Translations under genes and position numbers: made by a program
Assembly: GCA_021163145.1 (NCBI GenBank)
Contig: JAGGXH010000064.1
Location: 2,197 to 66,196, forward strand
Length of the DNA: 64,000 bases
Source of the DNA: Candidatus Aenigmatarchaeota archaeon
Lineage (GTDB): Archaea; Aenigmatarchaeota; Aenigmatarchaeia; Aenigmatarchaeales; Aenigmatarchaeaceae
Direction: 5' to 3'
Shown: one piece after another, positions 10,137 through 34,828 of the stretch
Layout of the letters: every line of letters starts with the position of its first letter
Numbering within the stretch: position 1 is the first letter of the stretch
The notes under the pieces: model-generated
The model's database searches: none
What the model saw: only the letters and a program-made list of their open reading frames with translations
What the model was told of the DNA's origin: nothing

Positions 10137-10162
10137 GGGCCGGTGGTCTAGTCTGGTATGAC
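10137..10162 (+). repeat. tRNA-Val 5' fragment (acceptor + D-arm, 26 nt), imperfect direct repeat of 11061..11086
   Basis: gggccggtggtctagtctggtatgac vs gggccggtggtctagcccggcatgac; no anticodon arm follows; contains the ATG of the downstream endonuclease ORF. Confidence 0.6.
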
Positions 10163-11075
10163 TATTAGAACGATTGGAAACAATATATGTAATGGAAATA
10201 AAAATAATTCTATGAAACAACTTGATAATCAAACAGTTAAAAAAATAAAAAATATGCGAAATTCCGGATACTCTTATTTCGAAATATCATCTAAGTTAAA
10301 AATAACAAAATCAACTTCATATAAATATGCAAAAAATGTTAGATTACCAGTAAAATCTAAGAAAAAAATAAGCAGAAAAATATACAAAAGGCAGAAGAAA
10401 TTTATTGAAAATTATGCAAAAACTAAAAAATTACCAAAGAATATTAAATGGAATATCAATAAAGCTAGAATAATTGGGCACTGTATTTTTGATGGGAGTG
10501 TTACTGATTTTAATGTTAATTATACCAATAGTTCTAAAAAAATAATTGACCAATTTATTAAAGATATCGAAATTGTTTATGGTTTAAAATATACAAACAT
10601 ATACATAAAAAAAGGAAGCGTGTTCGATAAATATACTGTTGCATATTCTTCAAAAAAACTATGTGAAGATTTGAAAAAATATAGTAAATCATATAATTCC
10701 ACATCAAATATGACAAAAGCTCCCAAAAAAGTTTTTATATCTGATAAAAAAATAATAAAGGAATTTATAAGAACATTTTGGGAAGATGAGGGTTGCATTA
10801 CAATTAATGGCGAGATACTTGGAAGAATAAAGAATAAAGGGCTTAGAGACGATTTATTAATACTTCATAGAAAAGTTGGAATTGCTTGTAGCCCATATAA
10901 TTGTTCAGATGGAGCATTTGGAATACGGATTATTATAAATAAGGAAAATTTAAATAAGTTTAAATCAGTATCATTTAAAGAAGCTATGATAGTTCGTGGC
11001 AACAACAAAGGAATGTTAAAGAAAAAGTTGTTAGAGAGGATATATAGACATTATTTAAATGGGCCGGTGGTCTAG
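10158..11075 (+). CDS. LAGLIDADG homing endonuclease-like protein with N-terminal HTH
   Basis: HTH-like IKNMRNSGYSYFEISSKLKITKSTSYKY; LAGLIDADG motifs ARIIGHCIFDGSV and FIRTFWEDEGCI; start codon in the tRNA-Val 5' fragment, stop TAG (11073..11075) inside the D-loop of the intact tRNA-Val. Confidence 0.6.
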   Translation: MTIRTIGNNICNGNKNNSMKQLDNQTVKKIKNMRNSGYSYFEISSKLKITKSTSYKYAKNVRLPVKSKKKISRKIYKRQKKFIENYAKTKKLPKNIKWNINKARIIGHCIFDGSVTDFNVNYTNSSKKIIDQFIKDIEIVYGLKYTNIYIKKGSVFDKYTVAYSSKKLCEDLKKYSKSYNSTSNMTKAPKKVFISDKKIIKEFIRTFWEDEGCITINGEILGRIKNKGLRDDLLILHRKVGIACSPYNCSDGAFGIRIIINKENLNKFKSVSFKEAMIVRGNNKGMLKKKLLERIYRHYLNGPVV

Positions 11076-11170
11076 CCCGGCATGACGTCACCCTTACATC
11101 CTTTCTTATGATTTATTAAGAAAGGTATGATAGGTGGATATCGCCAGTTCGAATCTGGCCCGGCCCACCA
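11061..11170 (+). tRNA. tRNA-Val (anticodon UAC) with ~33-nt anticodon-loop intron
   Basis: Acceptor GGGCCGG/CCGGCCC+ACCA, anticodon stem UCACC/GGUGG, loop CUUACA (TAC at 11095..11097), intron ~11099..11132 with hairpin cctttctta/taagaaagg, T-arm GCCAG-UUCGAAU-CUGGC. Confidence 0.75.
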
Positions 11171-11183
11171 TTTTTATTTTTAA
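11171..11183 (+). terminator. oligo-T tract after tRNA-Val
   Basis: tttttattttt immediately 3' of CCA; archaeal termination at T-runs. Confidence 0.3.
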
Positions 11184-11200
11184 TATACATAATTCTTATC

Positions 11201-12640
11201 ATGTATACTATACTAGATTGTTATACAGATGAACCATCTGGTTTAGGTGTACCACCATATATTGGAACATATCCAAGATATTTAGCAGGTGCACTTTCTA
11301 TATTAGGTAAAGAAATTGCTTATATAACAATTGATGATTTAAGATATCCGAAAAAATCAAAACTAAAAACAGATATAGCAACTTATAATAAAACAAATCA
11401 AGATATTAGAAAAATTATTTCTAATACAAAGAAATTAATTGTTGTTGCAGGTATTCATACATCTGGGAAATATTTATCAGCAATACCTGCAACTCTTAAG
11501 GAAATAATAAGAATAATTAAACCATTTAAATTCAGAAAAATATTAACAGGTCCAGCTGCATCAGTTTATGGATCTGGTATCCATGGAGGTAAGTTTTCAG
11601 AGAAAGTTGATTTGTCTGTATTTGATGAGATAAATGAAAATTATCTTGGGATTAATGACTATAACAAAATAAGAAGATATTCTATAGAAGGAGCATTTAT
11701 AGTAAAAAATAATCCAAGATATCCAAATTGTATTGTAGAAATTGAAACATCTAGGGGATGTCCTAGAAAAGTTGGATGCTCTTTTTGTACAGAATCTCTG
11801 AGAAAATTTGAAAAGAGGAATATAAATGATATTATTAATGAGGTTAAAGCGTTGTCAGATCAAGGTATTAAGTATTTTAGATTAGGAAAGCAAAGTGATT
11901 TTTTTGCTAGAAATAAAAATGAAATTGAAAAACTATTGAGATCAATAAAAGAAGATGTTTCTCCTGATGTATTGCATATTGATAATATAAATCCATCAAG
12001 TGTTACAGAAAATAAAGTTAAGATAGTAACAAAATATTGTACACCTGGAAATGTCGCAGCACTTGGTGTTGAAAGTTTTGATAAAAATGTTATAGAACAA
12101 AATAATTTAAATTCTGATCCAGATATAACAATGAATGTAATAGAAATTATAAACAAGTTTGGATCTATTAGAGGAGATAATGGGATGCCATTATTTTTAC
12201 CAGGAATAAATATTTTATTTGGATTAAAAGGAGAAACCAAAGAAACACATAAAATAAATATGAGATATCTTAAAGAAATTTTAAATAGAAAATTATTATT
12301 AAGAAGAATAAATATTAGACAAGTTGTTCTTTATCCTTATACTAAATTATATGAAACCACTAAAACCAAATTTCTTAGAAAAAATAGAAAATATTATTGG
12401 AAATGGAGAAATGAGATACGACACTCAATTGATCTTCCAATGTTAAAAAATCTGTGCCCAAAAGGAACTATTCTTAGAAATGTTTTAACTGAAATACATA
12501 ATGGCAATACTACTTTTTGCAGGCAAATAGGAACTTATCCTTTAATAATTGGGATAAAAGAGAAACTTCCATTAAACCAATTTATTAATATTGAAGTAAC
12601 TGATCATATGTTAAGAAGTCTGGTTGGTAGAAAAATCTAA
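11201..12640 (+). CDS. radical SAM domain protein with N-terminal Rossmann/B12-binding-like domain (non-canonical Cx5Cx2C cluster)
   Basis: IETSRGCPRKVGCSFCTE followed by a glycine-rich SAM-binding region; N-terminal IVVAGIHTSGKY domain; spacing checked in the DNA. Confidence 0.55.
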   Translation: MYTILDCYTDEPSGLGVPPYIGTYPRYLAGALSILGKEIAYITIDDLRYPKKSKLKTDIATYNKTNQDIRKIISNTKKLIVVAGIHTSGKYLSAIPATLKEIIRIIKPFKFRKILTGPAASVYGSGIHGGKFSEKVDLSVFDEINENYLGINDYNKIRRYSIEGAFIVKNNPRYPNCIVEIETSRGCPRKVGCSFCTESLRKFEKRNINDIINEVKALSDQGIKYFRLGKQSDFFARNKNEIEKLLRSIKEDVSPDVLHIDNINPSSVTENKVKIVTKYCTPGNVAALGVESFDKNVIEQNNLNSDPDITMNVIEIINKFGSIRGDNGMPLFLPGINILFGLKGETKETHKINMRYLKEILNRKLLLRRINIRQVVLYPYTKLYETTKTKFLRKNRKYYWKWRNEIRHSIDLPMLKNLCPKGTILRNVLTEIHNGNTTFCRQIGTYPLIIGIKEKLPLNQFINIEVTDHMLRSLVGRKI

Positions 12641-13644
12641 TTTATTTTATATCTTAAAAATCCACCAATTCCACCAAGGTTCATAAATTTTTCACCAGCT
12701 TCATGTTCATGATCAATTATTTTTATTTCTGTTCCTATTTTTTCAGCTGTTTTTAGTAAATCTTCAAGTTCTCTTACTTTAGAATCAGAAATTATTAGTA
12801 GTTTTAATGCGCCCATTTCAAGTGCTTTTTTTGTTTCATCTAGTCCATAAACAACATTTCCCTCTTTCATTATTTCTTTTAAAAATTCTTCTATTATCTT
12901 TGTTTCTTCTGTTATTCTATTTGTTTTTACTATTTTCTTTAATATACCTCTTCTTAATAACTCATTTAATCCAGGCTTCCCTATATGATTTAATTTGTCA
13001 AAAAATATACCATCTAACAATTGTTTATATTTTTGTTCTAAAATACTTTTCAAATCATCTTTTGTAAACCCTGGTCCTGCGATTACTATATTTTTATATT
13101 TTTCTTTTTTCCTTTCTAATTCATTTATTATTTTTCTAAAATATTCTGGTTTTTCAGATTTTTCACCTTGTTTTCCAGATGGCCCACCTCTAATATGTAA
13201 TAGATGCTTTATTCTATCACCTATTAAATAAAAATCACATTCTCTGTCATCTAATATAATTGCTACTATAGGATGCTGTGGCTTTTCAGCAGCTTTTATT
13301 TTATTTACTTCCCAAGATTTCCATTCTCTTTGGATTGTTAATGTATCTCCTGATTTAATGTTAAAGGAATGATAAGAATGTTCTATGTCTTCAGGCCCTT
13401 TTACTATTTTTCCATTTATCTTTAAAATATCTGATAATTCTACTTTTTCTACTAATAATGTTAGAACAACAGGTTTTTTACCTACTTTTTCTTTTCTTTC
13501 TCCTCTTTCTACTTCTATTGTTCTCAATGTTCTAGTTGTTACAAGATCACCTGGTCTTATTATATTACTAAGAATAAATAAATCATCATTATTTTCAGGA
13601 GTAATTTTTGCAATATTATGCTTCAGATCAAAGTATGATTTCAT
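12637..13644 (-). CDS. pelA: Pelota/Dom34 mRNA surveillance factor
   Basis: eRF1-like domain architecture; C-terminus FMNLGGIGGFLRYKIN parallels the aRF1 C-terminus; N-terminal DDLFILSNIIRPGDLV. Confidence 0.8.
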   Translation of the reverse strand: MKSYFDLKHNIAKITPENNDDLFILSNIIRPGDLVTTRTLRTIEVERGERKEKVGKKPVVLTLLVEKVELSDILKINGKIVKGPEDIEHSYHSFNIKSGDTLTIQREWKSWEVNKIKAAEKPQHPIVAIILDDRECDFYLIGDRIKHLLHIRGGPSGKQGEKSEKPEYFRKIINELERKKEKYKNIVIAGPGFTKDDLKSILEQKYKQLLDGIFFDKLNHIGKPGLNELLRRGILKKIVKTNRITEETKIIEEFLKEIMKEGNVVYGLDETKKALEMGALKLLIISDSKVRELEDLLKTAEKIGTEIKIIDHEHEAGEKFMNLGGIGGFLRYKIN

Positions 13645-13687
13645 GATAATAGTAATATTTAATACTTAATAAATTCATTCTGTTTTT

Positions 13688-14695
13688 ATGAAGAAAATAT
13701 TAGATAATTATGTTAATGGTGCATATTGTCTTGAAACATTTACTGGAAATGAAAATGATGTATATCATATATTAAGGCAATATACTAACAAAGATTTAGT
13801 AATTGCAAGAATATTTGTATATGGAATATTAAGAAGATATGGTGCATCAGATGAAGGATTAAATGCACTTCTTCCTGTTTCACAGCATAATATTATAGGT
13901 CCAATTGCTGTTACATGGAAAAAAATATTGTTTGGAAAAAATATAATAATAACTAAGGGTGGTATAAGAAGAACAAAATATGAACCTGGTTCTACAACAG
14001 ATCCAGGAGATTATTTAGAAGTATTCACTATTATTGGTTCAAAAAAAGATGTTGATAAATTTGTTTCTGATTGGAATAATCTAGAGATATCATTTGGATA
14101 TGTGGTAGCTCCATGCACAGTACAAGTTGGGCCACCTAAAGATAAAAATTATTTGAGTTGTTCATTATACTTAGATTCAGAAAGTAAAATACCAGCAAAT
14201 AAAACAGATATAATTATTGTTGTACCAAAGAAACCCACAGAATGGTTTATTTTATCAAGCAAAAGATTAAATAAAATTAATGAACCAAAAATTGCTAAAC
14301 CAGAAATCATTAAAGAAGAAATAACTAAAGAAGAACAAGTTGAGAAAAAAACATTTTATGATAGAATTGAGCAAGAATTGGAATCAGATAAACCAAAATT
14401 AGGTAAAATGAAGCAAATATTATATGAAAAATTATTTAATATATTTACAAGTGCTGGAATAGATCAAAAAAATGCTATTAATTTGTGTAGAGAAATAACA
14501 CAAGAATTTACAATTGATCTTTTTTCAGAGCTTGTGCTTGCAATGAAAACCATTTCATCTAGAATATCTATTGATGGTAACATTGTATCAGAAGGAAGAG
14601 AAGTAACAACTAGTGATCTTATTAATTGGATAATAGAAAATCTTGATATAAATCCAAAAATTAAAGACATATTAGCAGAAATTAAAACTTATTAA
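13688..14695 (+). CDS. hypothetical protein
   Basis: No recognised motifs. Confidence 0.35.
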   Translation: MKKILDNYVNGAYCLETFTGNENDVYHILRQYTNKDLVIARIFVYGILRRYGASDEGLNALLPVSQHNIIGPIAVTWKKILFGKNIIITKGGIRRTKYEPGSTTDPGDYLEVFTIIGSKKDVDKFVSDWNNLEISFGYVVAPCTVQVGPPKDKNYLSCSLYLDSESKIPANKTDIIIVVPKKPTEWFILSSKRLNKINEPKIAKPEIIKEEITKEEQVEKKTFYDRIEQELESDKPKLGKMKQILYEKLFNIFTSAGIDQKNAINLCREITQEFTIDLFSELVLAMKTISSRISIDGNIVSEGREVTTSDLINWIIENLDINPKIKDILAEIKTY

Positions 14696-14724
14696 TGTAA
14701 ATTAACATATATTAAGTGATATAA

Positions 14725-15513
14725 ATGCCTGATTTCATTCCTGTATTAACAGCTGCATTGATAATATTATTAGTATTGTTTATAGCAGTTGGTGGGTTAC
14801 CTGTATCAGAAGAAAAGGAAACTTCTCCTAGTAGTTTAACTTATTATTATCCTGATATATCTGGAACAATAATGCTTGGATCAAATTTTACTATATCTAA
14901 TTATGCAGATACAAAATTTTTAGCAAAATTAGATGGAAGAGTTTCTCAAGGTTTAATCTCAGGTGAAAAGAAAACCATATCATTTAAAGCACAAGATTAT
15001 CATAATTTTGATACAGGAAAAATAGTTGTAAATATAATAAACACAAATCTTTATGGAAATTTAATTGTAAAAATAAATGGAAAAACTGTTCTAAATGAAA
15101 GACCTAATATTGGTAAGCATGAATATTATTTTGATAATAATGTATTAAAAACAGAAAATACAATTACTGTATTTACAAGTGGTTCTGGATGGAGATTCTG
15201 GGCACCATCAATTTATGATTTAAATCTAAGTTTATATATGGAGACATTGGATATTAATAAAAAGTCATTTAAATTTGATCTAGATGGTAAGCCTGAAAGA
15301 GCAAGAATTGCTATTTTTGGAGACAGAATTAAAGGTGAAGGAGAAATAGTAATTAAGATTAATGATATAAAGGTGTACAAAGGTTATTTAAATGCTTATA
15401 AATATTTTGATCCAGATATTTTAAATATAGGTGAAAATTATGTTGATATATATTCTGAACAAAATTCAGAATATAATATATATTCAGCTAAAATAATATT
15501 GTGGGATGAATAA
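14725..15513 (+). CDS. membrane-anchored secreted protein (N-terminal TM helix)
   Basis: MPDFIPVLTAALIILLVLFIAVGG then a hydrophilic domain with NxS/T sequons. Confidence 0.4.
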   Translation: MPDFIPVLTAALIILLVLFIAVGGLPVSEEKETSPSSLTYYYPDISGTIMLGSNFTISNYADTKFLAKLDGRVSQGLISGEKKTISFKAQDYHNFDTGKIVVNIINTNLYGNLIVKINGKTVLNERPNIGKHEYYFDNNVLKTENTITVFTSGSGWRFWAPSIYDLNLSLYMETLDINKKSFKFDLDGKPERARIAIFGDRIKGEGEIVIKINDIKVYKGYLNAYKYFDPDILNIGENYVDIYSEQNSEYNIYSAKIILWDE

Positions 15514-15515
15514 TA

Positions 15516-17864: not shown

Positions 17865-17905
17865 CATTTATAATTAAATTATACTAAATAATAGTAGGTG
17901 ATGAT

Positions 17906-19741: not shown

Positions 19742-20597
19742 AATGAAAAAAATATTTTTTCCTTTATTATTGTCAATTGTAGTTATTTCAGGATGTATTA
19801 GTATTCCTGGTATTGGAAAGGCAAGTATAGGTGAGCAAGGAATATTTAATATCCAAAATCCTGATATTAGCATAGATATAAAACCATCTACAACTGAAGT
19901 TAAATCAGGAAGACAAATAAGTTTAAAATTTCATTTAACAAGTAATCAAAATGATTTGTTTAATATTTTACTTAATGTATATGATCAATGTATATTTACT
20001 GGTGATAATTTATATTCAATAGATAGTTTAAAGCATGGTAGATCAAAATCATGGATATGGAGATGGAAAGCTGGAAGCACAGAATTTCCTATGAATTGTA
20101 AAATAAAATATAGAGTATCATATATATCTAATTTCACATTATTTCATGATATAATATCAATGAAAGAATCTGAATATTATTCAAGACAAGAAAGAGGAAC
20201 TTTAAATGAAATAAAACTATTATCAAATAGTACAACCAATCCTTTAGACATTAAAATAAGATTCTCAGAACAACAACCATTTATTGAAGGAGAAGAATAT
20301 AATATGTATATTGATTATTCTTATTCAGGTAATGGATATATTGAGAAATTAGAAAATGTTACTATAAAAATTCCAGATTTCATAAATGATATAAAATGCA
20401 GTGGTTATGATTATGATAAAGAAACCCATACACTTAAATTAAATAGAGATCTTAATTTTTATAATAAAAAAGGTCCACAAACAACATGCACATTTACAAC
20501 ACAATTATCAGATCCATTGGAAATACAAAAAATTACATTAACAGCAAACTATATATATAAGTTTGACAATTCATTATTAATAAATGTAAAACCTTAA
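19734..20597 (+). CDS. secreted lipoprotein-like protein
   Basis: Signal peptide with ISGC motif (FFPLLLSIVVISGCISIPG). Confidence 0.45.
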   Translation: MNKMKKIFFPLLLSIVVISGCISIPGIGKASIGEQGIFNIQNPDISIDIKPSTTEVKSGRQISLKFHLTSNQNDLFNILLNVYDQCIFTGDNLYSIDSLKHGRSKSWIWRWKAGSTEFPMNCKIKYRVSYISNFTLFHDIISMKESEYYSRQERGTLNEIKLLSNSTTNPLDIKIRFSEQQPFIEGEEYNMYIDYSYSGNGYIEKLENVTIKIPDFINDIKCSGYDYDKETHTLKLNRDLNFYNKKGPQTTCTFTTQLSDPLEIQKITLTANYIYKFDNSLLINVKP

Positions 20598-20609
20598 ATG
20601 TGATTAAAA

Positions 20610-21521: not shown

Positions 21522-21522
21522 T

Positions 21523-22767
21523 TTACTTTATAAAAGCTGATAATCCTTTTTGCCTGTATTTATATATTTCCATATTTATTTTCTTTCCTGGTGGAACAGG
21601 TATCCCATAAACTCCTGCACCACCTGGAATATATTTAAATTTATCTTCTCTAAATAGCTTAATTAATTCAGCAGTTTTTTTATGAACTTTTTCAAGTTCA
21701 TTAATAGAAATATTTAATAGAACATTAGTTTCATTTTCAAATTTATTAACAAATTCTTTCCATAAATCTTGAACCCTATTTGACCAAACCTGTTTAATAT
21801 TTAAGGCAATAGCAATAATTTCTGATAATGGTATTATATGTATATATTTTGGTCTATGCTTAGGATGAATACCTTCTTTTGTGTCAGAAAGTTCCTTAAT
21901 TCTATAATCAACACCTTTTTTAATATAATTTTTACATTTTGGACATCTCCAGTTAAGTTTTTCGGCTTCTCTTGGACTAAAAAACATTAAGCAACCTCTG
22001 CATCTTGTTCGGTTATATTTGCCTTCAAGTGGATTAAGTCCAACATTTAATATACATTTTCTATTAGCTTCTCTTTTTAATGCCTTAGATATCTCATTAA
22101 AGCTAATTTCTTTTATCTTAAGTTTATTAAATTCTCTTCCCATCTTATTTGGCCAAGGACTATGAGCATCACTATTGCTAAGAAATGTTAATTTATGTAA
22201 TTCGCTAATCCTATCAGCCATATTTGTATCTGCTGATAATCCTAATTCTAGAAAATGAATTTTATTCCAGTATTTTCCATAACAATCTTTATATGAATCA
22301 AACTTAGAATATAATGAAAAATATGGAGTAAAAGCATGCGCGAATCCTATTAAACAATCTGACTCTATACACATTTCAGCTATTTGTTCAGCACTTAACC
22401 ATAATTTAGGTCTGCCATCTGTATCTAGATTTTTACAATGTTTTTTTATTTTTTCTCTTAGTTCATATACTTTTGATAAACTAGGAAATAATATAATATG
22501 ATGAACTCTGTTATTGTCTTCAACTTCAGTCTGTAAAATAAATTTTGTTCCATTTGGATGTTCAAAAATATCTTCAGTAACTGGTTTTAATTGCTGTTTT
22601 ATTAATTTGATCCATCTTTCATTTAATATATCAGCTGTTCCAACCAGTTGTAAACCTTTTAATAGAGCTTGTTCTCCGATTACTTTTGGGATCATCTTTT
22701 GACTAACTGCACCAGAATAAAGCCCATGTACATGGAGGTCGCAATTAACTTCTATAAAATCAGACAT
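21523..22767 (-). CDS. PHP-domain nuclease with C-terminal zinc ribbons, EndoQ-like
   Basis: N-terminal CDLHVHGLYSGAVS (PHP metal-binding His cluster); C-terminal CRGC...CPKC; size ~414 aa fits archaeal endonuclease Q; assignment from memory of family features. Confidence 0.4.
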   Translation of the reverse strand: MSDFIEVNCDLHVHGLYSGAVSQKMIPKVIGEQALLKGLQLVGTADILNERWIKLIKQQLKPVTEDIFEHPNGTKFILQTEVEDNNRVHHIILFPSLSKVYELREKIKKHCKNLDTDGRPKLWLSAEQIAEMCIESDCLIGFAHAFTPYFSLYSKFDSYKDCYGKYWNKIHFLELGLSADTNMADRISELHKLTFLSNSDAHSPWPNKMGREFNKLKIKEISFNEISKALKREANRKCILNVGLNPLEGKYNRTRCRGCLMFFSPREAEKLNWRCPKCKNYIKKGVDYRIKELSDTKEGIHPKHRPKYIHIIPLSEIIAIALNIKQVWSNRVQDLWKEFVNKFENETNVLLNISINELEKVHKKTAELIKLFREDKFKYIPGGAGVYGIPVPPGKKINMEIYKYRQKGLSAFIK

Positions 22768-24194
22768 TTTTTATACACCTTATACCAATTTTTATCTAAT
22801 AAATCAAATTTTCTTAGAGTTCTACAGAAATTTAGAAATTCCTTTCTAATCATAGGATAATAGTTATTCTGAAATTTTAAAATTATATTTCTTATTTCTC
22901 TACCTTCTTTTGTAAATATAATTTTATATTTTTTATTTGGTTTTGGACTTATTTGCTTTAATTTTATTAGCTCATATTTCTTGAAAACATTTATATATTT
23001 TTTTTGACCTCTTGCAATGTCAATACCCTTAATAATGTAACCGTCTTTGATTTTCATAAAAGCTTTTGTATACTGTAAATTTAAGAACAAATATATAAAT
23101 TTTAATCTATTAATCAGATTGAATTTATAAATATCATTGATTATAAGATTTATATTTTTGAACCAATCTGAATAAATTATCAATTTAGCTGTAGTAGGAT
23201 AATTACAGCATTTGATTTTTATATTTTCATTTTTAAATATTTTTTCTAATAATAAGAAATCTGAATTTAGCGTTTTTTTATTTAAGCTAATATGATGAGT
23301 TAAAAATGTTTTTGTCTGCTTTATAGGACTTCCGTCACCTGACAAAACACCTCTAATAAAATTATTATTGTCATATGGAATATTCACATCTAATAATTTT
23401 AAAAATAGTTCTTTTAGAATAATGCTACCAATATTCATTTCAAGTGTACCGCATGGTGATCTCGATTTTCTGCTTAAATGAAGCTTTGTGAATTTTTCTA
23501 TACCGGTTTGAGTTTTCCAAAATGCCTTTAATTGTTTTTCTTTTTTCTTTAGTTTGGGGTGACAATATATAGAAGCACTAATATCTTTTCTTCTTAGGTT
23601 TGATATGCTTTCTATAAAATCTAAAATAATATTAATTGTACTAGGGTCAGAATTTGTAAATGATGGTGCTTTCTTCCCACCTTCAGCGAAATATAAACCT
23701 AATGCAGCAGATGCCAATTCAGTAATTCTTATTTTTTTGTTAAAAATAATATCTTTTTTATAATATCCTCCAACTAATACTTTTAAATTGTTTAGTTGAT
23801 ATGCATAAATTGGAGTTAATCCTGTAGATTTCGGCATAATAGAAAGAATAGATATCTCGGAAGATTCTTTCTTATTTTCTCTAATTAAAGCCTCCTTTTC
23901 TGGAATTATATCTATAATCTTAATCTTCGGATTTTTAATCAACTTTTCCTTTTTGTATGAAATAATATAACTGTTTTCTGTTCTATGCATTTTTTTGAAT
24001 CTTATTGATTTATTATCTTTATTTGAAACTTCAACAACAGTTATTAAATTATTACAAGGTTTAGAAATAAAATTTTTAATGATACTCATTGGAATTGATG
24101 TAGTAAAATTAGATCTTATATGCGGTTTATATGTATTATTATTTATAATGCTATACTTGCTTCGATCCAAATTTAACTCACTAATATTTACCAC
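22752..24194 (-). CDS. LAGLIDADG homing endonuclease-like protein (free-standing)
   Basis: Motifs LGLYFAEGGK and FIRGVLSGDGSP; 3' end overlaps the start of the EndoQ-like gene by 16 nt. Confidence 0.55.
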   Translation of the reverse strand: MVNISELNLDRSKYSIINNNTYKPHIRSNFTTSIPMSIIKNFISKPCNNLITVVEVSNKDNKSIRFKKMHRTENSYIISYKKEKLIKNPKIKIIDIIPEKEALIRENKKESSEISILSIMPKSTGLTPIYAYQLNNLKVLVGGYYKKDIIFNKKIRITELASAALGLYFAEGGKKAPSFTNSDPSTINIILDFIESISNLRRKDISASIYCHPKLKKKEKQLKAFWKTQTGIEKFTKLHLSRKSRSPCGTLEMNIGSIILKELFLKLLDVNIPYDNNNFIRGVLSGDGSPIKQTKTFLTHHISLNKKTLNSDFLLLEKIFKNENIKIKCCNYPTTAKLIIYSDWFKNINLIINDIYKFNLINRLKFIYLFLNLQYTKAFMKIKDGYIIKGIDIARGQKKYINVFKKYELIKLKQISPKPNKKYKIIFTKEGREIRNIILKFQNNYYPMIRKEFLNFCRTLRKFDLLDKNWYKVYKKCLIL

Positions 24195-24347: not shown

Positions 24348-24542
24348 TCACGAATTATCTTCTATAAATTTTTCAAAACTTCTATCAAATGTTTTTTCAG
24401 CTTCTTTAGAAAAGCAACAAGCAGGTAGCTCATTTCTACTTAAATGAAATCGTAAACATTCACAACATATTACTTTTTTATCACATCCAGAATATGTACA
24501 AGGGCATTTTTCTAAATTTTTTTGAAAATTTGGACAGTGCAT
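24348..24542 (-). CDS. small Cys-rich protein (zinc-ribbon-like), short form of listed ORF 24348..24647
   Basis: MHCPNFQKNLEKCPCTYSGCDKKVICCECLRF...; the longer listed ORF reads into the tRNA gene so the internal Met at 24540..24542 is taken. Confidence 0.3.
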   Translation of the reverse strand: MHCPNFQKNLEKCPCTYSGCDKKVICCECLRFHLSRNELPACCFSKEAEKTFDRSFEKFIEDNS

Positions 24543-24553
24543 GAAAATCACAA

Positions 24554-24663
24554 TGGTGGGCGAGGAGAGATTTGAACTCTCGACCTCTACGTTATCAGCT
24601 ACGCCTCTATTGTATTGGAAAATACAAAGATGTAGCGCTCTAACCAAGCTAAGCTACCCGCCC
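24554..24663 (-). tRNA. tRNA-Ile (anticodon GAU) with 32-nt intron at a non-canonical position (anticodon-stem 30/31)
   Basis: 5' 31 nt identical to tRNA-Ile(UAU) at 10016; joining ...gagcgctac + gctgataacgtagaggtc gives stem CUACG/CGUAG, loop CUGAUAA (GAT at plus 24594..24596), variable AGGUC, T-arm GAGAG-UUCAAAU-CUCUC, acceptor CUCGCCC+ACCA; intron 24600..24631. Confidence 0.65.
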
Positions 24664-24963: not shown

Positions 24964-25158
24964 CTTATTTTACTGGAACCAAATCATATCCTTCTTCTCT
25001 TTCATGATTTGGTCGCTTGAAATACCACACACCCTCTACTTTTATATAATTTGGGTCATTTTCATACTTACTTGTGCACATTAAAATAAATAATTATAAT
25101 TAAAAATTTAAAAAACTTTATATGCTTAAGAATATTTATTTTCAATAGAGATGATAAT

Positions 25159-27525: not shown

Positions 27526-27601
27526 ACTTTGTAATATAATTTTAATTGTGAATAAAATGAAATACATACAAGTTTTAAACAATTGACAAACTTTTTCTAG
27601 T

Positions 27602-28801: not shown

Positions 28802-28812
28802 AAAATGTAGAG

Positions 28813-29319
28813 TTATAAAAACTCTACAAAATCAGCTGCATGTTTTAAAGAGACAGCCAATCCTGGCTTTGCAGCAACTAAAAGTGTTTTTTTACCTTTT
28901 TCTTTTGCTTTTTGAATAAGTGCAAAAAAATCTGCATCACGACTTGCAAGAGCAATGATATCTATATTTGGATTATATATTGCCTCCATTGCATGAACAG
29001 CAACAGCAACATCTACATCTGTTTTTTGTTCAGGGTCACCAAGTGCAATTATTGTTTCAAGACCCTCATTTGTGACAGCTTCTATAAGCTTTTCAGATGC
29101 AAATTGATTTAAAAAAACTTTTCCTACCACAATTCTTCCATATTTCTCTACTTTCTTTCTCATTGCTCTTAAATCTACATTGAATTCTTTCCTAATTATA
29201 TTTGGCCCATCTACAAAAAATGCTATCCTGTTCTTTTTCTCACTAATTTTTTTAATTGCACTGAAACCCTTTTTTACATTTTCTAACATAGAAAAACACC
29301 TGTTATTAATTAGTAGCAT
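28813..29319 (-). CDS. NYN/LabA-like (PIN-fold) domain protein
   Basis: IAFFVDGPNI...LASRDADF pattern. Confidence 0.55.
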   Translation of the reverse strand: MLLINNRCFSMLENVKKGFSAIKKISEKKNRIAFFVDGPNIIRKEFNVDLRAMRKKVEKYGRIVVGKVFLNQFASEKLIEAVTNEGLETIIALGDPEQKTDVDVAVAVHAMEAIYNPNIDIIALASRDADFFALIQKAKEKGKKTLLVAAKPGLAVSLKHAADFVEFL

Positions 29320-29325
29320 TACTTT

Positions 29326-30093
29326 TTATATTGGTAGGTTAAAGAAATTTATTGCATTCTTTGTAGTTTGTTCTATTACTTGCTCTACATCTATTTTTTT
29401 AATTTCTGCGATTTTATTAGCAACAGTTTTTACAGTTGTTGAATCATTTATTACATCTTTTCCTTCTAATATTTTTTCAGGTGCTAACCATGGTGCATCT
29501 GTCTCTAGCATAATGTTTTCTAATGGCATATCTCTTATTATTTTTTTATGCTTTTTTGATCTAAGTATAATAGCATTTATTGAGATACTCCAATTATTCT
29601 CAATGACAATTGGTAATTGCTTCCATCCACCCCACATGTGTAAAAGAACATTTTTTTGATCATATAATAAATCTAAAGTATCTTCATATGCTTCTCTGCA
29701 ATGTATAATAATTGGTTTATTTAAAGTATTTGCTAAATCTAACATTTTTTCAAACAAAATCTTTTGTTTTTCTATTAAACTAGGCTCTTTTACCCAAAAA
29801 TAATCAAGACCAATTTCTCCTATACCAACTATATTGTTTTGATAATTCTTTATTTTTTCTATAAAAACATCTATTTGATTGTCTGATAAATCTTTAACAT
29901 ATTCTGGATGTATACCAACTGTAGCAAAAACAAATTTTTTATATTGATTTACAAGTTGCATTGTTAAATTAAAATCATGCGGATGGGCACAAGAAGTTAT
30001 TATAGCTTTTAATCCAAAATTCTTATATTTCTTAATTAATTTATTTCGATCTTTGTATACAGATTGTTCTAAATGGCAATGGCTATCTATCAT
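29326..30093 (-). CDS. tatD: TatD-family metal-dependent hydrolase/DNase
   Basis: MIDSHCHLE N-terminus, GEIGLDY, HCR and D motifs of TatD TIM-barrel. Confidence 0.8.
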   Translation of the reverse strand: MIDSHCHLEQSVYKDRNKLIKKYKNFGLKAIITSCAHPHDFNLTMQLVNQYKKFVFATVGIHPEYVKDLSDNQIDVFIEKIKNYQNNIVGIGEIGLDYFWVKEPSLIEKQKILFEKMLDLANTLNKPIIIHCREAYEDTLDLLYDQKNVLLHMWGGWKQLPIVIENNWSISINAIILRSKKHKKIIRDMPLENIMLETDAPWLAPEKILEGKDVINDSTTVKTVANKIAEIKKIDVEQVIEQTTKNAINFFNLPI

Positions 30094-30222
30094 AACATAA
30101 GATTAGAGAAATAGTTTAAATATTTAATTCTTATATAAGCAGAGATTATTTTTTAGCTTTCTTTTTCTTTGCTTTATTTTTACAATATTTATATTGTGCT
30201 TTTTTAACACCAAAAGGATTTC

Positions 30223-30651
30223 TCATTTTCTCACCTTTAATGCATACTTTAATGCTTTTTTATGATTATTAAAAGTTAGCAGTCTTAAAGCTTCTTCTGA
30301 ACTTACCCACTTATATTCTGTGTGTTCATATCTATCTATTTTAACATTTTCATTTGGAAGTTCAACTATAAATAATCTGTTTTCTCCACCATAATACTTA
30401 TATCCATCTTTTATAAAAGACCTTGGCCATTTATATTTAAACATATATTTTGTTCTTTTTAACTTAAATTTATTATGACCAGTTTCTTCTTTTATTTCTC
30501 TTTTTGCAGCATCTATTATTCTTTCTCCTTTTTTAACACCACCTTTCATTAATTCCCATCCTCTCCAATTTCTATATCTGTGGAATATTAATACTTTGTC
30601 TTTATGAAATATTGCTGCACACACATATTTTCTATATTTTGACTGATCCAT
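30223..30651 (-). CDS. NUDIX hydrolase
   Basis: Nudix box GGVKKGERIIDAAKREIKEETG. Confidence 0.75.
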   Translation of the reverse strand: MDQSKYRKYVCAAIFHKDKVLIFHRYRNWRGWELMKGGVKKGERIIDAAKREIKEETGHNKFKLKRTKYMFKYKWPRSFIKDGYKYYGGENRLFIVELPNENVKIDRYEHTEYKWVSSEEALRLLTFNNHKKALKYALKVRK

Positions 30652-30688
30652 AAACAGTTTAATACTATAAATAATATATAAATTTTGT

Positions 30689-31030
30689 ATGAAAATAATG
30701 TTAGATACAAGCTTTTTGATAACAGCATTAAAGTATAAAATAGATATAATATCAGAGTTAAGAGGTCATCAATTATATACAAATACTAATGTTATTAGAG
30801 AATTAGAAGGCTTATCTAAAGGTAAGGGAAAAAATGCTATGTTTGCAAGGATAGCCTTAGAACGAACTAAAAAATTTAAAATATTAACCCCTAAAATAAA
30901 AGATACTGATAAGTCACTTGTCAATTATTCAAAAAATGCCTATATTATAGCTACCCAAGACATGAAACTTAAAAAACAGCTTAAAAAATCTATTTATATT
31001 AGACAAAAGAAATATTTAGTGATGCCATGA
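30689..31030 (+). CDS. PIN-domain protein, Fcf1-like
   Basis: MLDTSFLI N-terminal Asp; YIIATQDMKLKKQL C-terminal acidic motif. Confidence 0.5.
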   Translation: MKIMLDTSFLITALKYKIDIISELRGHQLYTNTNVIRELEGLSKGKGKNAMFARIALERTKKFKILTPKIKDTDKSLVNYSKNAYIIATQDMKLKKQLKKSIYIRQKKYLVMP

Positions 31031-31485
31031 ATATAGATAATCTTTATGTGCTTATTGAAAATTTAAAAGGTTCAAAGCACCTTTACAAATATAAAGAGGA
31101 AATTGATAAGCTTATATTAGTTAAAAAGATAAAAGAACCATTTCCTGCTGCATATGGACATATACCACGAACTCATATTGATGCAGAAGCATTGGATGTA
31201 GTTGTGCTTTCATCAGAACCATTAGAAAGAGGAACACTTGTATCTATAAGAATTTTAGGTGCTATGAGACTTGAAGGAAAAATAACTGATTATATTATAA
31301 TATCAGTTGTAAATGATGATCTTAAAAACATAGAAGATATAAATGATTTATCACAAAAAGAATTTAATGATATAAAGAACTTTTTTGAAACCTTTAAAAA
31401 CCTTAAATACAAGAAATGTTTTAATGTTAGAGAAGCAAAAAAGATAATAAAAAACTCGATGGAGTTATATGAGAGGGTTGTTTAA
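31027..31485 (+). CDS. ppa: inorganic pyrophosphatase (family I)
   Basis: AAYGHIPRT...DAEALDVVVLS...GAMRLEG matches YPxNYGxIP/DGDPLDVLVL/pattern. Confidence 0.6.
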   Translation: MNIDNLYVLIENLKGSKHLYKYKEEIDKLILVKKIKEPFPAAYGHIPRTHIDAEALDVVVLSSEPLERGTLVSIRILGAMRLEGKITDYIIISVVNDDLKNIEDINDLSQKEFNDIKNFFETFKNLKYKKCFNVREAKKIIKNSMELYERVV

Positions 31486-32049
31486 ATGTATCAGATTGTA
31501 ACAATTGAAGATACCATTGCTGTGCCTCCAGAAAAATTTGGTGATAATCTTAAAAAATCAATTTCAGAATCAATTTCAGAAAAATTTGAAGGAAATATCA
31601 ACAATGAAATAGGTATAATACTATCTGTAGTTGATATTATTGAAGTAGGTGAAGGAATAGTATTACCAGGAGATCCTTCAATACACTATTCAGTAAAATT
31701 TAGTTTACTTACATGGATGCCAAAATTACAAGAAATTGTAGAAGGTTTAATTGTTGATATAACTGAGTTTGGTGCATTTGTAAGAGTTGGTGGATTTGAT
31801 GGTTTAATACATATTTCACAAGTTATGGATGATTTTGTTAGCTATGATGATAAAAATTCACAATTAGTTGGAAAGCAAACTCACAATATCTTAAAAGAAG
31901 GAGATAAAGTAAGAGCAAGAATAATTTCAATAAGTTTTAAAGAACAATCTAAATTAGGATTAACAATGAGGCAGCCATTTTTAGGAAGCTTTAAATGGTT
32001 ATCAAAGCCAGCTGAAGTAAAAAAATCTAAAAAATCAAAGAAAAAGTGA
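31486..32049 (+). CDS. rpoE: DNA-directed RNA polymerase subunit E' (Rpo7)
   Basis: N-terminal Rpb7 fold plus S1 domain (EGLIVDITEFGAFVRVGGFDGLIHISQ). Confidence 0.85.
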   Translation: MYQIVTIEDTIAVPPEKFGDNLKKSISESISEKFEGNINNEIGIILSVVDIIEVGEGIVLPGDPSIHYSVKFSLLTWMPKLQEIVEGLIVDITEFGAFVRVGGFDGLIHISQVMDDFVSYDDKNSQLVGKQTHNILKEGDKVRARIISISFKEQSKLGLTMRQPFLGSFKWLSKPAEVKKSKKSKKK

Positions 32050-32055
32050 TGAAAC

Positions 32056-32241
32056 ATGGCAACTGAAAAAGCATGTAAAATATGTAGAAGATTAGTTACT
32101 GGAAATACTTGTCCAGCATGTAAAACAAGTGATTTGAGCAAGAATTGGAAAGGTATTTTAGTAATTTTAGATTCTGATTCTGAGATTGCGAAAAAAGCAG
32201 GTATATTAGCACCAGGAAGATATGCGGTGAAGGTAAAATGA
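32056..32241 (+). CDS. spt4: transcription elongation factor Spt4 (RpoE'')
   Basis: CKICRRLVTGNTCPACKT zinc ribbon; conserved position after rpoE. Confidence 0.8.
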   Translation: MATEKACKICRRLVTGNTCPACKTSDLSKNWKGILVILDSDSEIAKKAGILAPGRYAVKVK

Positions 32242-32582
32242 ATATGGAAATATTGAATGAAAAGGAAAACAAATTGCTAAAAAGAAAAGAATATTTAATT
32301 TATGTTAAATATGAAAGTGCAACACCAAGTAAAGAACAAATGCAAGAATTAATTTCAAAATTCTTAAATGTTAATAAAGATAATATTGAAATCCATAAAA
32401 TTATTTCTGAGATAGGAAAATGTGCTGGTAAAGTATGGGCAAGAGTATGGGAAGATAAGACATTTTCATATGGAAAACCTAAGAAAGAAGAATCTAAAGA
32501 AGAAGCAGCAACTGAAGAAAAAACTTCAGAAGAAGCTTCTCAAGAACAACAGAAAAGCGAAGAAACTAAAGAGGGAGAATAA
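32238..32582 (+). CDS. rps24e: 30S ribosomal protein S24e
   Basis: N-terminal NPLLKRKE-like motif; conserved operon position; acidic C-tail. Confidence 0.8.
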
Positions 32583-32791
32583 TGGGTAAGAAAAGAAAGC
32601 AAAAAGTAAGAAAAGGAAAAAAGAAACCATCAAAATCAAAGCATAGAGTTAATAAATTATGGCAATTGTTTAAAGATAATAAAAAACCAAGATCATGTCC
32701 TAGATGTGGTCCAGGGTTTTTCATGGCAAAGCACAAAGATAGATATACTTGTGGAAAATGCGGTTATTCAGAAAAACAAGTTAAAAAATAA
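32582..32791 (+). CDS. rps27ae: 30S ribosomal protein S27ae
   Basis: [24 protein letters not shown] zinc ribbon. Confidence 0.85.
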
Positions 32792-32930
32792 AATTTATTT
32801 AAATTTTGAAAGATAGGTTCTTTTTATGATATGCTTAGGTATAGAATCAGGTTGTTCTCACTTGAACTTATTTTTAGCGTTCACTTACGCTGTTTAGAAG
32901 TGGAACTCGGTAGGTTAATAAAAATTTAGA

Positions 32931-33356
32931 GTGATGGTAGTTATTTACAAAAATGCAAAAACTTATAAATCCAAACAAATAATTAATTTCATGGCAGGTA
33001 TGAAAATAATAATACCACTTGCTTTGATATTTTCAGTAGTTCTTATTAGTGGCTGTATTCAGAGTCAAGAGACACAACAAACTCAATTTAAAGTATTTGA
33101 TCAAGCATTAAACGAAGTTGGTACATTTAATTCTGATGTTACTATTCCTTTAGACGATAGTGAAGCTTGTGAAGTCGCTAAAGATGCTGCTCAAGTTTAT
33201 GGTCAAACATCTTTTAAGGACTGTGATGAAATACAAAGGATAGAAAATATCGAAATTAATGTAATAGATAGTACTTCTATTGATGATTATACCTATGCAG
33301 AGATAGCAAAAATTGATGAAAACTTGAAGACAGTTACATTCTATAGTTCGCCTTAA
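32931..33356 (+). CDS. small secreted lipoprotein-like protein
   Basis: Signal peptide with ISGC (LALIFSVVLISGCIQSQ). Confidence 0.4.
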   Translation: MMVVIYKNAKTYKSKQIINFMAGMKIIIPLALIFSVVLISGCIQSQETQQTQFKVFDQALNEVGTFNSDVTIPLDDSEACEVAKDAAQVYGQTSFKDCDEIQRIENIEINVIDSTSIDDYTYAEIAKIDENLKTVTFYSSP

Positions 33357-33550
33357 TATTATTTCTCCAACATTCTCCTAATCCTCTCTTCAATCTCAGG
33401 AACATATTTATAGAAAGCTGGCCTGAAATGTGGTCTTGGACCATTTTGATTGTTCCAGACTCTAAAAAATAATGGCTCAACTGAACCGTTATTTTCATCA
33501 CTCATTCAAGATAAGAAAGATTTAAGTTGCTTGAGAAACAATAGATAGAT

Positions 33551-34828
33551 ATGAATACAAAGGGAAAATATATGCAACAAAAATCTGTAAAATTTGCTAA
33601 TGATTTTCTAAATAATTATAGTCATTATAAATTAGATTTTATTAATGATTTTTATGGCATAGAGCCTATTGATAAGGATTTAGAAGATTTCAAAAACTTT
33701 TTCAAAGTTATGCAGTTGAAGGCAAAAGCATTGTCGCTTAAAATTATATCTAAAAAAACTGGCCTATCCAAGTCTTCTATTGGAAAGTGGGTATTTAACA
33801 TAAGTATACCACCAATAATCCAACTTCTCAATTATCACAATAAACTAACAAAAAAATGTAATAAGAAATGGTTATCTATTAACTCTACAAGAGGCGGAAA
33901 ATTAATTGGACAATGGATAGCTGTTCCTGAAACAATTGATAATTATCAAACTATAGTGAATTTTCTAGAACAGATAAAACCATTACAAATTGCATATGAA
34001 AGAGCTAAAAAATTTAAGATAAACTTAGAAAAACAAAGAACATTACTATTTGCTTATTTACTAGGCATAATGTTGGGTGATGCGAGTAAACATGGTATTA
34101 AGAGAAGAAACAGAACTTCAAGGCGTGTACAATTGGCATTAACAGGAGCACATAAATCAAATGAGAGAATTGGTAACTTTACATCTCTATGTGCAAATTC
34201 AATAGGATTAAGAATGAATAGAATTAAAGATATGCCAGCTGGTAAAATGAACATTAAACCATTTTATAGATGGAGTTCACAGTCTTCTTTGTTAGTTCAA
34301 TGGATATTTGATGTTTGTATGGGGCTTAACAATGATCAGACAACAACATATGATAATGTTAAAATGGGCTGGCTACTAAAGATGCCTAAACAATTTAAAA
34401 TATGGTTTTTACAAGGTTTAGCAGACTCTGATGGTTATGTAGATTTCAATTCTTTTCAAGTTGGAATAATCTCTCAACCTAATACTGATTTAATTAAGAA
34501 GATTATTGAAAGTTTTGGAGTCAAATGTTCCATAAAAATTTTCAGAGAAAACAATTTAGAAGCAGTTATTGTTTCTGTTGAAGATGCATATAAATTGCAA
34601 TTATTTAACCCAATTGTAAAGAGTTACAGATATTTTGAAATGCAACGTCTTGCTACAGCAAAAAAATTATCTTGGCATATGTCAGAGGATTTAAATCTTA
34701 AAATCGTAGAATTATTGCAATCAGGATTAGATGGAACTAAATTAATTCGGAAACTCATACAAGCAGAAAATATAAGAGTAAGACCAAATGTTATAAGAAG
34801 AATAAAGAGGGTGAACAAAATTGAATAA
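33551..34828 (+). CDS. LAGLIDADG homing endonuclease-like protein with N-terminal HTH (free-standing)
   Basis: HTH-like LKIISKKTGLSKSSIGKWV; LAGLIDADG motifs LLGIMLGDASKHG and FLQGLADSDGYV; ends 17 nt before the Kae1 N-terminal remnant. Confidence 0.6.
   Translation: MNTKGKYMQQKSVKFANDFLNNYSHYKLDFINDFYGIEPIDKDLEDFKNFFKVMQLKAKALSLKIISKKTGLSKSSIGKWVFNISIPPIIQLLNYHNKLTKKCNKKWLSINSTRGGKLIGQWIAVPETIDNYQTIVNFLEQIKPLQIAYERAKKFKINLEKQRTLLFAYLLGIMLGDASKHGIKRRNRTSRRVQLALTGAHKSNERIGNFTSLCANSIGLRMNRIKDMPAGKMNIKPFYRWSSQSSLLVQWIFDVCMGLNNDQTTTYDNVKMGWLLKMPKQFKIWFLQGLADSDGYVDFNSFQVGIISQPNTDLIKKIIESFGVKCSIKIFRENNLEAVIVSVEDAYKLQLFNPIVKSYRYFEMQRLATAKKLSWHMSEDLNLKIVELLQSGLDGTKLIRKLIQAENIRVRPNVIRRIKRVNKIE

Follow-up and report, generated by a model that had tools for sequence, protein, structure and literature searches.

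We describe three free-standing LAGLIDADG genes that are probably independent homing endonuclease genes, each lodged in the 5' end of a different host gene. They lie in a 64,000-nucleotide stretch (hereafter the window; 27% G+C) of contig JAGGXH010000064.1 from a Candidatus Aenigmatarchaeota archaeon, in which the first gene (O1) adjoins a tRNA-Val gene, the second (O2) the gene of the nuclease EndoQ, and the third (O3) the gene of Kae1. The first-pass annotation of the window had noticed three genes with a helix-turn-helix (HTH) segment and two LAGLIDADG motifs at the 5' edges of conserved genes; this was largely right in its open reading frames (ORFs), neighbours and motifs, but needs three corrections. 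The anatomy is richer than first described: it comprises an orphan 5' stub of the host gene, the endonuclease gene, the rebuilt host gene and, in two of the three cases, a neighbouring bulge-helix-bulge intron. Homing endonuclease genes in essential genes are known to hide in self-splicing introns or inteins. Here, three unrelated endonuclease genes in one small archaeal genome appear to insert at the start of a gene and to supply a new one. The features concerned are as follows.

10137..10162, plus strand: orphan 5' stub repeating nucleotides 1-26 of tRNA-Val (23/26 identical)
10158..11075, plus strand: O1, 305 amino acids; N-terminal HTH and double-motif LAGLIDADG core (IIGHCIFDGSV, FWEDEGC)
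11061..11167, plus strand: complete tRNA-Val(UAC), Rfam 48.1 bits; its 5' end lies over the O1 stop codon
24299..24343, minus strand: orphan 5' stub of EndoQ, MKIIADLHIHSHY; ATG plus 13 codons, MKIIADLHIHSHYL and a stop codon, about 105 nt upstream of the O2 start
22752..24194, minus strand: O2, 480 amino acids; motifs LGLYFAEGG and IRGVLSGDGS
21523..22767, minus strand: intact EndoQ, host gene of O2 (phmmer against P. furiosus EndoQ 5zb8, E 3.7e-117)
32826..32897, plus strand: orphan 5' stub of Kae1 immediately 3' of S27ae; sequence resembling a 5' untranslated region, then MICLGIESGCSHLNLFLAFTYAV and a stop codon
33551..34828, plus strand: O3, 425 amino acids (418 if the start is 33572); N-terminal HTH, LAGLIDADG core and C-terminal helical/HTH tail
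34821..34872, plus strand: Kae1 exon 1; TTG start, MNKNNINKICLGIESTA plus the first base of a His codon, overlapping the O3 stop codon
34873..34888, plus strand: Kae1 intron, 16 nt, bulge-helix-bulge; central helix CCGC/GCGG, 3-nt bulges ACA and AAA
34889..35829, plus strand: Kae1 exon 2 (Pfam TsaD, E 2e-86)

The coordinates first reported for O1 (10158-11075), O2 (24194-22752) and O3 (33551-34828) all stand.

Duplicated gene starts and the Kae1 mini-intron

Before each of the three ORFs lies an orphan copy of the start of its own host gene, and each cassette therefore consists of an endonuclease gene and a replacement 5' end. The stubs in the window occur on the correct strand only, upstream of the matching endonuclease gene. 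That of EndoQ is a canonical EndoQ start including the PHP metal-binding motif; the pattern DLH[IVM]H[SG] is found twice in the six-frame translation of the window, in EndoQ and in the stub, compared to 0.005 times per shuffled window. The pattern [CIL]LG[IV]E[SG] is likewise found twice, in Kae1 and in its stub (shuffles: 0.04 per window), and nucleotides 1-26 of tRNA-Val have two matches in the window altogether, where 0/100 shuffles gave one. The O1 start codon (10158) falls within the tRNA-Val stub. Stub and functional copy differ at 3/26 positions for tRNA-Val and 5/15 for Kae1, and in EndoQ as DLHIHS against DLHVHG. The boundary of the duplication is at nucleotide 26/27 in tRNA-Val, 11 nt before the 37/38 intron; between GAA and AGT in Kae1, 10 nt before the intron; and just after DLHIHSHY in EndoQ. 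Among homologous loci in other assemblies, L122 has an EndoQ stub (MFADLHIHG) some 62-90 nt upstream of its O2 homolog; none turned up before the O2 homologs of L043-L045, nor a tRNA stub before the O1 homologs of L046 and L048. Scans for sigma-70 promoters and terminators were uninformative for an archaeon.

O3 had been described as ending 17 nt before an N-terminal remnant of Kae1. The position holds (17-20 nt before ICLGIESTA), but the supposed remnant is Kae1 exon 1; the true remnant is the stub 2 kb upstream, 32826-32897, which reads MICLGIESGCSHL... up to a stop codon and contains the Kae1 start MICLGIES. Upstream of it, ttctttttATGATATG corresponds to the Kae1 starts seen in the empty alleles L098, L102 and L115 (aattctatttATGATATG). 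Stubs of the same kind stand before the O3 homologs of L059 (MICLGIE), L010 (MNCLGIES), L101 (MALILGVESTA) and L011 (MTIILGIESTCH). Relative to the empty alleles (MICLGIE), the Kae1 start that follows O3 is extended by 4-8 residues, as seen in the window (MNKNNINKICLGIE), L007 (MDRKNKLICLGIE) and L059 (MVDELVCLGIE); the cassette therefore supplies a new start and new first codons. The Ser codon is TCA in three of the five Kae1 stubs. In 17/17 intron-bearing Kae1 genes, sampled blind to RNA, this position is AGY or GGT, which the outer helix of the intron needs. The TCA codons hint that the stubs may derive from intron-less alleles, whose 5' region, as built from the stub sequence, would read …TGCTTAGGTATAGAATCA ACN GCN CAY ACN….

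The frames that follow O3 give NKICLGIESTAQYI and a stop codon, then the main Kae1 frame from ...NTLGIGIV. The RNA of this region folds as GAGAGUA-CCGC-ACA-(loop)-GCGG-AAA-UACUCUU, a 4-bp helix with two 3-nt bulges and an outer helix (RNAfold: -20.6 kcal/mol, z -3.7), and a cut after the second nucleotide of each bulge removes 34873-34888 in silico to give ...GIESTAHTLGIGIV.... The resulting 330-residue protein aligns without gaps to M. jannaschii Kae1 (9-330 with 5-327, E 3.7e-123). An interruption of 13-28 nt is present in 17/17 distinct genome loci found via the O3 protein, and the same cutting rule restores Ala-His-Thr in every one of them. In these 17 sequences 95.3% of the cells are paired, compared to 30-41% in slid controls; five pairs show compensatory changes, and the observed covariation score was reached by 0/500 shuffles. 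The second pair of the central helix, formed by the third base of the Thr codon and an intron base, is U-A in 8, C-G in 7 and A-U in 2, and Glu GAG/GAA covaries with Leu CUN/Phe UUY. When metagenomes were scanned for the intron pattern, 73 loci came back, some 65 of which are true Kae1 genes. Pooling gave a non-redundant set with about six non-Kae1 matches left in it, where the same pair is U-A in 33, C-G in 14, A-U in 7, U-G in 4 and mismatched in 3. The intron, 13-30 nt long, is found in about 55 distinct sequences, many with an inner helix, and sits at codon 10-18, within the ATP-binding hairpin motif. We rejected a frameshift or sequencing error, as the interruption varies from 13 to 30 nt and covaries. 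We conclude that it is a bulge-helix-bulge intron, for which splicing is predicted from the sequence.

Our literature searches turned up no report of a Kae1 intron in the papers searched, in which cbf5 of Crenarchaeota is the only protein-gene case of a bulge-helix-bulge intron (PMC2738675, PMC5829648). Kae1 would be the second protein-gene family with such an intron, after cbf5. With the intron widespread in DPANN archaea, gene callers annotate Kae1 as truncated, frameshifted or fused to the upstream ORF.

LAGLIDADG identity and neighbourhoods

The two LAGLIDADG motifs reported for each ORF are present, with an acidic residue at motif position 8 in O1, O2 and O3. In the alignments of the three families (A1, A2 and A3) these residues either do not vary or alternate between D and E only: the O3 motif aspartates D170 and D287 (A1 numbering) are invariant in 50 homologs, and the motif residues of the O1 family are invariant in A3. 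The suggestion of a single, lineage-specific family does not hold. Pairwise BLAST of the O1, O2 and O3 proteins finds no similarity; having no detectable mutual similarity, they are three separate families, and each extends across several DPANN phyla. The N-terminal HTH-like segment ascribed to all three is found in O1 and O3, but O2 has an all-beta N-terminal domain instead.

Support for O1 as a LAGLIDADG endonuclease comes from profile matches to intein endonucleases. Its Pfam match is weak (LAGLIDADG_3, E 8e-5), but the profile of its family matches the intein endonucleases 7qsu and PI-PkoII in the PDB (E 3e-6) and the endonuclease of the window's own intein (E 1e-12), which places O1 nearer to that domain than to O2 or O3. 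This intein, with a LAGLIDADG_3 endonuclease domain at residues ~479-875, is in a PilB/T2SSE-like ATPase (2722-5805, minus strand).

O2 has no Pfam match. Its predicted structure (predicted local distance difference test, pLDDT, 89.9) consists of the all-beta N-terminal domain (14-156), a double-motif LAGLIDADG core (~159-352) and a winged helix (~387-427). The structural matches, with their scores, are PI-PfuI (10.8), I-Tsp061I (10.3), the Thermococcus VMA intein (10.3) and WhiA (10.0), followed by I-DmoI (8.3), MarR-type winged helices (7.7) and PhS018 (7.4). On the model, we assign the MarR-type match to the putative insert 387-427 and the PhS018 match to residues 14-156. PhS018 we take to be a swapped-hairpin barrel; with an all-beta domain in this position, O2 therefore lacks an N-terminal HTH.

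O3 carries the motifs LLGIMLGDAS and LQGLADSDG and has a weak Pfam match to Hom_end (E 2e-4). An AlphaFold model built from 50 homologs (pLDDT 94.9) has I-DmoI as its top Foldseek match (E 4e-7, template modelling score 0.71) with intein endonucleases next; WhiA and a maturase (bI3) rank lower. Over the O2 and O3 models together, the best matches are I-DmoI, PI-PfuI, I-Tsp061I and PI-SceI, and both models have the tandem alpha-beta-beta-alpha-beta-beta-alpha saddle fold. The O3 family also has a conserved VCLGL(K/E) at residues ~251-258 (A1), which recalls the Kae1 start ICLGIE and is probably a coincidence. ORF 47397-47759 gave weak profile matches and was considered as a further relative, but it is a prefoldin.

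The three ORFs are not inteins, being separate, with their own start and stop codons, in a frame that differs from that of the host gene; no splicing-block residues were noticed by eye in the conserved columns of A1, A2 and A3, on which no intein profile was run. Nor are they intron-encoded: no ORF in the window lies within an intron (the tRNA-Val intron has 33 nt, that of Kae1 16 nt, and EndoQ has none). They also differ from WhiA-like regulators in retaining the catalytic residues and, for O3, in a patchy distribution that includes decay products.

The relatives of O3 number more than 120 (28-62% identity) and come from Aenigmarchaeota, Woesearchaeota, Pacearchaeota, Nanoarchaeota and Iainarchaeota, with remoter ones in Nitrososphaerota. 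A scan of species-representative genomes gave 36 loci, and Kae1 follows O3 immediately in 18/18 DPANN loci with downstream sequence. The occupancy of the slot upstream of Kae1 was scored in 45 intron-bearing metagenome Kae1 loci with at least 1.3 kb of upstream sequence.

14/45 loci: full-length O3
28/45 loci: no O3
2/45 loci: a different HTH-LAGLIDADG gene (L079 and L088, an identical ORF on two contigs)
1/45 loci: the last 50 O3 residues alone (L119, 6272-6460)

At this one fixed site, O3 is therefore present in some genomes and absent from others (14 full, 28 empty and 3 other among the 45, or 14-17 with O3). To these we add L098, an empty site with the same flanks, S24e-S27ae-Kae1, and a spacer of ~20 nt in place of O3; the first-pass annotation had proposed looking for related genomes that have the same neighbours minus the insert, and for O3 this is one. 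The gene in L079 (944-1894) and L088 (1955-2905) encodes 317 amino acids with Pfam LAGLIDADG_3 and HTH_23 and lies upstream of an intron-bearing Kae1, and the Kae1 site therefore appears to draw more than one endonuclease lineage. The 50-residue piece of L119 looks like a deletion remnant. Among close Aenigmarchaeota relatives that share these flanks, L059 and L007 have N-terminally truncated O3 copies of 325-329 residues without the HTH, and in L102 and L115 the slot is taken by other small genes. The similarities of O3 and Kae1 are correlated with a Spearman coefficient of 0.46, nearest neighbours are concordant in 8/25, and some pairs are closer in O3 than in Kae1 (e.g. L001/L118, 60% and 50%). 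Two side observations concern the 3' flank: a 179-aa ORF with a LAGLIDADG-looking LFEALKVEG and no Pfam match just 3' of Kae1 in L007 (5930-6469), and an IS605 OrfB/TnpB-type gene directly 3' of the O3-Kae1 pair on an Iainarchaeum contig (L006, 6287-7420).

The Nitrososphaerota relatives (L003, L026-L042) are not at Kae1; of 18 such loci inspected, at least 13 have the relative tail-to-tail with EF-1alpha. In L036, L039, L041 and L042 the relative is split into 2-3 ORFs, which are either pseudogenes or long-read assembly errors.

The 16-nt overlap of O2 with the start of an EndoQ-like nuclease gene is confirmed, and the gene (22767-21523) is a genuine EndoQ. We looked for a hidden intron in EndoQ and discarded the idea: residues 7-392 align to 5zb8 3-383 without an insertion, and there is no frame break in five homologous loci. 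O2 is rare: its relatives, about 25, form 15 clusters at E<1e-30 among 1.84 billion representative proteins. EndoQ adjoins the O2 homolog in 6/6 contexts: in five it follows O2 on the same strand (gap -20 to +12 nt), and in one the genes are convergent; on the latter, contig P0140, EndoQ is on the opposite strand, tail-to-tail with an 11-nt overlap. Between the window and L045, EndoQ is 68% and O2 48% identical, and across two EndoQ clades the values are 37% and 41-45%. The similarity of O2 is flat (41-48%) over an EndoQ similarity range of 36-69%, and by this measure O2 appears not to be co-diverging with EndoQ.

O1 overlaps, as had been noted, the tRNA-Val gene, and does so by 15 nt of tRNA-Val(UAC) 11061-11167. 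The tRNA has a 33-nt intron after the anticodon, at ~11099-11131 (ARAGORN: tRNA-Val(tac), intron position 39); with default settings ARAGORN reports no tRNA in the window, and Rfam models or its intron option are needed. Apart from an exact database copy, O1 has 10 relatives; the homologs sit at tRNA genes, in positions that vary among the window, L046, L047 and L048. In L048 the homolog runs 10 nt into a tRNA-Arg(CCU) with a short intron. The L046 homolog is 120 nt downstream of a tRNA-Val(UAC) (2542-2625) that has a 12-14-nt insertion right after the D arm, at about nucleotide 26, where the stub of the window ends. In L047 it is inside a tRNA-Arg(CCU), the halves of which flank the ORF with a 13-bp closing helix; the intron is 848 nt, ARAGORN calls the joined exons tRNA-Arg, and this is the sole O1 relative that is intron-encoded. 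We rejected a group I intron in L047, as no Rfam family matches the locus. Folding gave nothing convincing for a bulge-helix-bulge that would join the tRNA-Val stub to the downstream tRNA and make O1 intron-borne. Scans of viral contigs with O1 and O2 found no relatives.

Further features adjoin the cassettes.

10016..10130, plus strand: intron-bearing tRNA 5' of the O1 cassette, Rfam 57.6 bits; its 3' end is 6 nt before the tRNA-Val stub
24557..24663, minus strand: intron-bearing tRNA 5' of the EndoQ stub, Rfam 49 bits
32931..33356, plus strand: lipoprotein-like ORF of 141 aa between the Kae1 stub and O3, with a signal peptide that ends in Cys

The two tRNAs have near-identical bodies and identical 30-nt upstream regions, with different intron positions and anticodons. 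Their identities are uncertain: Infernal alignment makes 10016-10130 a tRNA-Ile(UAU), for which ARAGORN gives a different anticodon, and we read the pair as Ile(UAU)/Ile(GAU), where the ARAGORN intron option has Leu(TAA)/Leu(CAG) although the variable arm is short. The tRNA at 24557-24663 is not a conserved neighbour of O2, the slot being without a tRNA in L043-L045. Between it and the EndoQ stub is a small Cys-rich ORF (24348-24560, minus strand; …CPCTYSGCDKKVICCECLRFHLSRNELPACCF…). ORF 32931-33356 has no Pfam match, and tBLASTn over the fetched related loci was negative; it is probably a passenger of the cassette or a later insertion.

Mechanism and alternative explanations

The likeness to intronless homing at the 5' edge of a target, which the first-pass annotation had pointed out, is supported by the stubs, the empty sites, the truncated and fragmentary copies and the discordant similarities. 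We suggest that on insertion the original 5' end of the host gene would be left upstream as the stub, while a replacement 5' end would stand at the 3' end of the cassette. The stub probably retains the host promoter, which would drive the endonuclease gene and the rebuilt host gene together. The enzyme would cut the uninvaded allele in a very conserved motif near the gene start, and repair would copy the cassette from the invaded allele, homology being provided on the left by the stub and on the right by the body of the host gene. The rebuilt gene could escape re-cutting through its recoded 5' end; in Kae1 and tRNA-Val, the bulge-helix-bulge intron 10-11 nt past the duplication boundary may add protection. 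Later decay or deletion of the endonuclease gene would leave resistant, endonuclease-free alleles, which for Kae1 would be intron-only, the majority class seen. We infer DNA cleavage, the identity of the targets, protection by the intron and transfer from cell to cell.

A bolder version, which we put forward tentatively and think doubtful, is that the endonuclease gene, the replacement 5' end and the mini-intron move as one composite cassette, the enzyme cutting intron-less alleles of Kae1 or of a tRNA at the future intron site. Repair would then install the endonuclease gene, the new exon 1 and the intron together, and recombination between the stub and the new 5' end would delete the endonuclease gene and leave a resistant intron-only allele. 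If this were true, archaeal bulge-helix-bulge introns of tRNA and protein genes would have a DNA-level route by which to arise and spread, and homing endonucleases would have, next to introns and inteins, a third way to reside inside an essential gene. The loci make the gain and movement of these introns, which occur in tRNA genes and occasionally in protein genes, testable, and should be of interest for research on mobile elements and archaeal introns.

Several observations weigh against our interpretation of the three genes as homing endonuclease genes. Mean column identity is 37-50% in all three families, with many invariant residues outside the active site; this conservation and the shallow tracking of Kae1 by O3 fit long vertical residence under purifying selection, as would a host function. 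Adjacency is conserved across phyla, and the case for mobility of O2 would rest on discordant similarity and one inverted neighbour. The Nitrososphaerota relatives of O3 are beside EF-1alpha in a conserved neighbourhood that looks stable. A recognisable stub is present in 5 of the ~26 O3-bearing loci. The Kae1 intron is present in most loci without O3, its protective role is conjecture, and no intron-less DPANN Kae1 allele turned up, although no search aimed at them was made. Finally, the duplicated 15-26 nt recreate much of the presumed target beside the cassette, and our explanation of immunity is a guess.

The main alternative, which we think unlikely, would make O1, O2 and O3 domesticated DNA-binding proteins of the LAGLIDADG type, serving as WhiA-like regulators or partners that are co-transcribed with Kae1, EndoQ or tRNAs in stable operons; the stubs would then be old scars of an ancient insertion that is now immobile. 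The ORFs overlap the downstream gene by 8-20 nt, suggesting coupled expression, the adjacency is kept over several phyla, the sequences are strongly conserved and carry extra DNA-binding domains, and the similarities of O3 and Kae1 are concordant among close relatives. Conserved adjacency had been proposed as the mark of a stable operon, and formally that outcome was obtained (O3 18/18, O2 6/6). It is not a discriminating test, however, since a fixed address is equally what site-specific homing predicts. WhiA has lost the catalytic residues and is universal and vertically inherited in its lineages. In our families, however, both motifs keep their catalytic acidic residue without, or almost without, exception. 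About 60% of the equivalent Kae1 loci lack O3, among them one in a close relative whose flanks are the same, and the site has yielded truncated copies, the 50-residue remnant and a different LAGLIDADG gene in the same slot; EndoQ is on the opposite strand to the O2 homolog in one contig, and O2 and EndoQ do not appear to co-diverge. The patchiness, the stubs, the decay products and the catalytic residues favour mobility over a domesticated regulator, most clearly for O3.

A far less probable explanation is that O3, and perhaps O1, acts on RNA as a maturase-like helper or splicing regulator, the unspliced mRNA yielding the LAGLIDADG protein and the spliced one Kae1. It would account for the intron in 18/18 O3-linked Kae1 genes and for the O3 frame of several genomes, which enters Kae1 exon 1 and ends at the intron stop codon, and the LAGLIDADG maturase bI3 is among the structural matches. 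However, about 28/45 intron-bearing Kae1 genes have no O3, and splicing therefore cannot depend on it. Bulge-helix-bulge introns are cut by the tRNA splicing endonuclease, which needs no helper proteins; moreover, there is no intron beside O2, and the residues for DNA cleavage are conserved. It is scarcely credible that assembly chimeras, frameshift errors or random short duplications produced the stubs and the Kae1 interruption as artefacts or accidents with no link to the endonuclease genes: the sequences all come from metagenome-assembled contigs and the stubs are short, with 21-45 nt of clear similarity, but independent samples supply ~55 distinct sequences with the interruption, which differs in length among them and shows compensatory changes, stubs recur in the independent assemblies L010, L011, L059, L101 and L122, and those in the window are strand-correct and upstream of the matching gene against a chance expectation of 0.005-0.04.

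Comparison with known systems

The free-standing endonucleases of T-even phages and cyanophages (F-CphI with the psbA intron; mobE with I-TevIII) share with our genes a location outside any intron or intein and next to the presumed target; the intronless and collaborative homing systems of phages are described in PMC6083498, PMC2790892 and PMC3984707. As in collaborative homing, the presumed target genes of O3 and O1 have an ORF-less intron near the cassette boundary. An endonuclease gene beside an ORF-less intron is found at O3/Kae1 in 18/18 loci, and for O1 at tRNA-Val in the window and at tRNA-Arg in L048. The phage enzymes, however, are of the HNH, GIY-YIG or EndoVII-like type, whereas ours are LAGLIDADG proteins, and they belong to phage hosts and group I ribozyme introns rather than to archaeal chromosomes and protein-spliced bulge-helix-bulge introns of 13-30 nt. 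Here, in addition, the cassette is within the 5' end of the host gene, brings a replacement and leaves a stub, and cleavage of the intron-less allele is predicted.

I-DmoI, I-Tsp061I and I-PorI, from bulge-helix-bulge introns of archaeal rRNA, share with our proteins the monomeric two-motif architecture and the link to introns of this type. They differ in being intron-encoded; O1, O2 and O3 are outside introns, their hosts are a tRNA gene and two protein genes, and they carry extra DNA-binding domains. A 2014 review gives archaeal tRNA intron lengths of 11-129 nt (PMC4090602), compared to 848 nt for the intron in L047. In the papers searched, we found no report of a bulge-helix-bulge tRNA intron with an endonuclease gene, nor of these protein families.

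Free-standing or fused endonuclease genes of fungal mitochondria (e.g. in atp6) insert with a copy of the adjoining host segment, and the outcome, an intact gene and a partial duplicate as relic, is shared with our loci. The mitochondrial copy is mostly of the 3' end or of an intron-internal exon; here it is of the 5' end with the start codon, the relic keeps its native upstream region, and the hosts are archaeal chromosomal genes that include a tRNA gene. A partial example of host-gene duplication by mitochondrial endonuclease genes is given in PMC7902536.

WhiA shares the LAGLIDADG scaffold and the HTH and is a structural match for both O2 and O3, but our proteins keep the catalytic residues, and O3 is patchy with decay products. 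Compared to the cbf5 intron of Crenarchaeota, the intron we describe is in Kae1 of DPANN archaea, is much shorter at 13-30 nt, has predicted splicing and, in about a third of cases, is linked to an adjacent LAGLIDADG gene.

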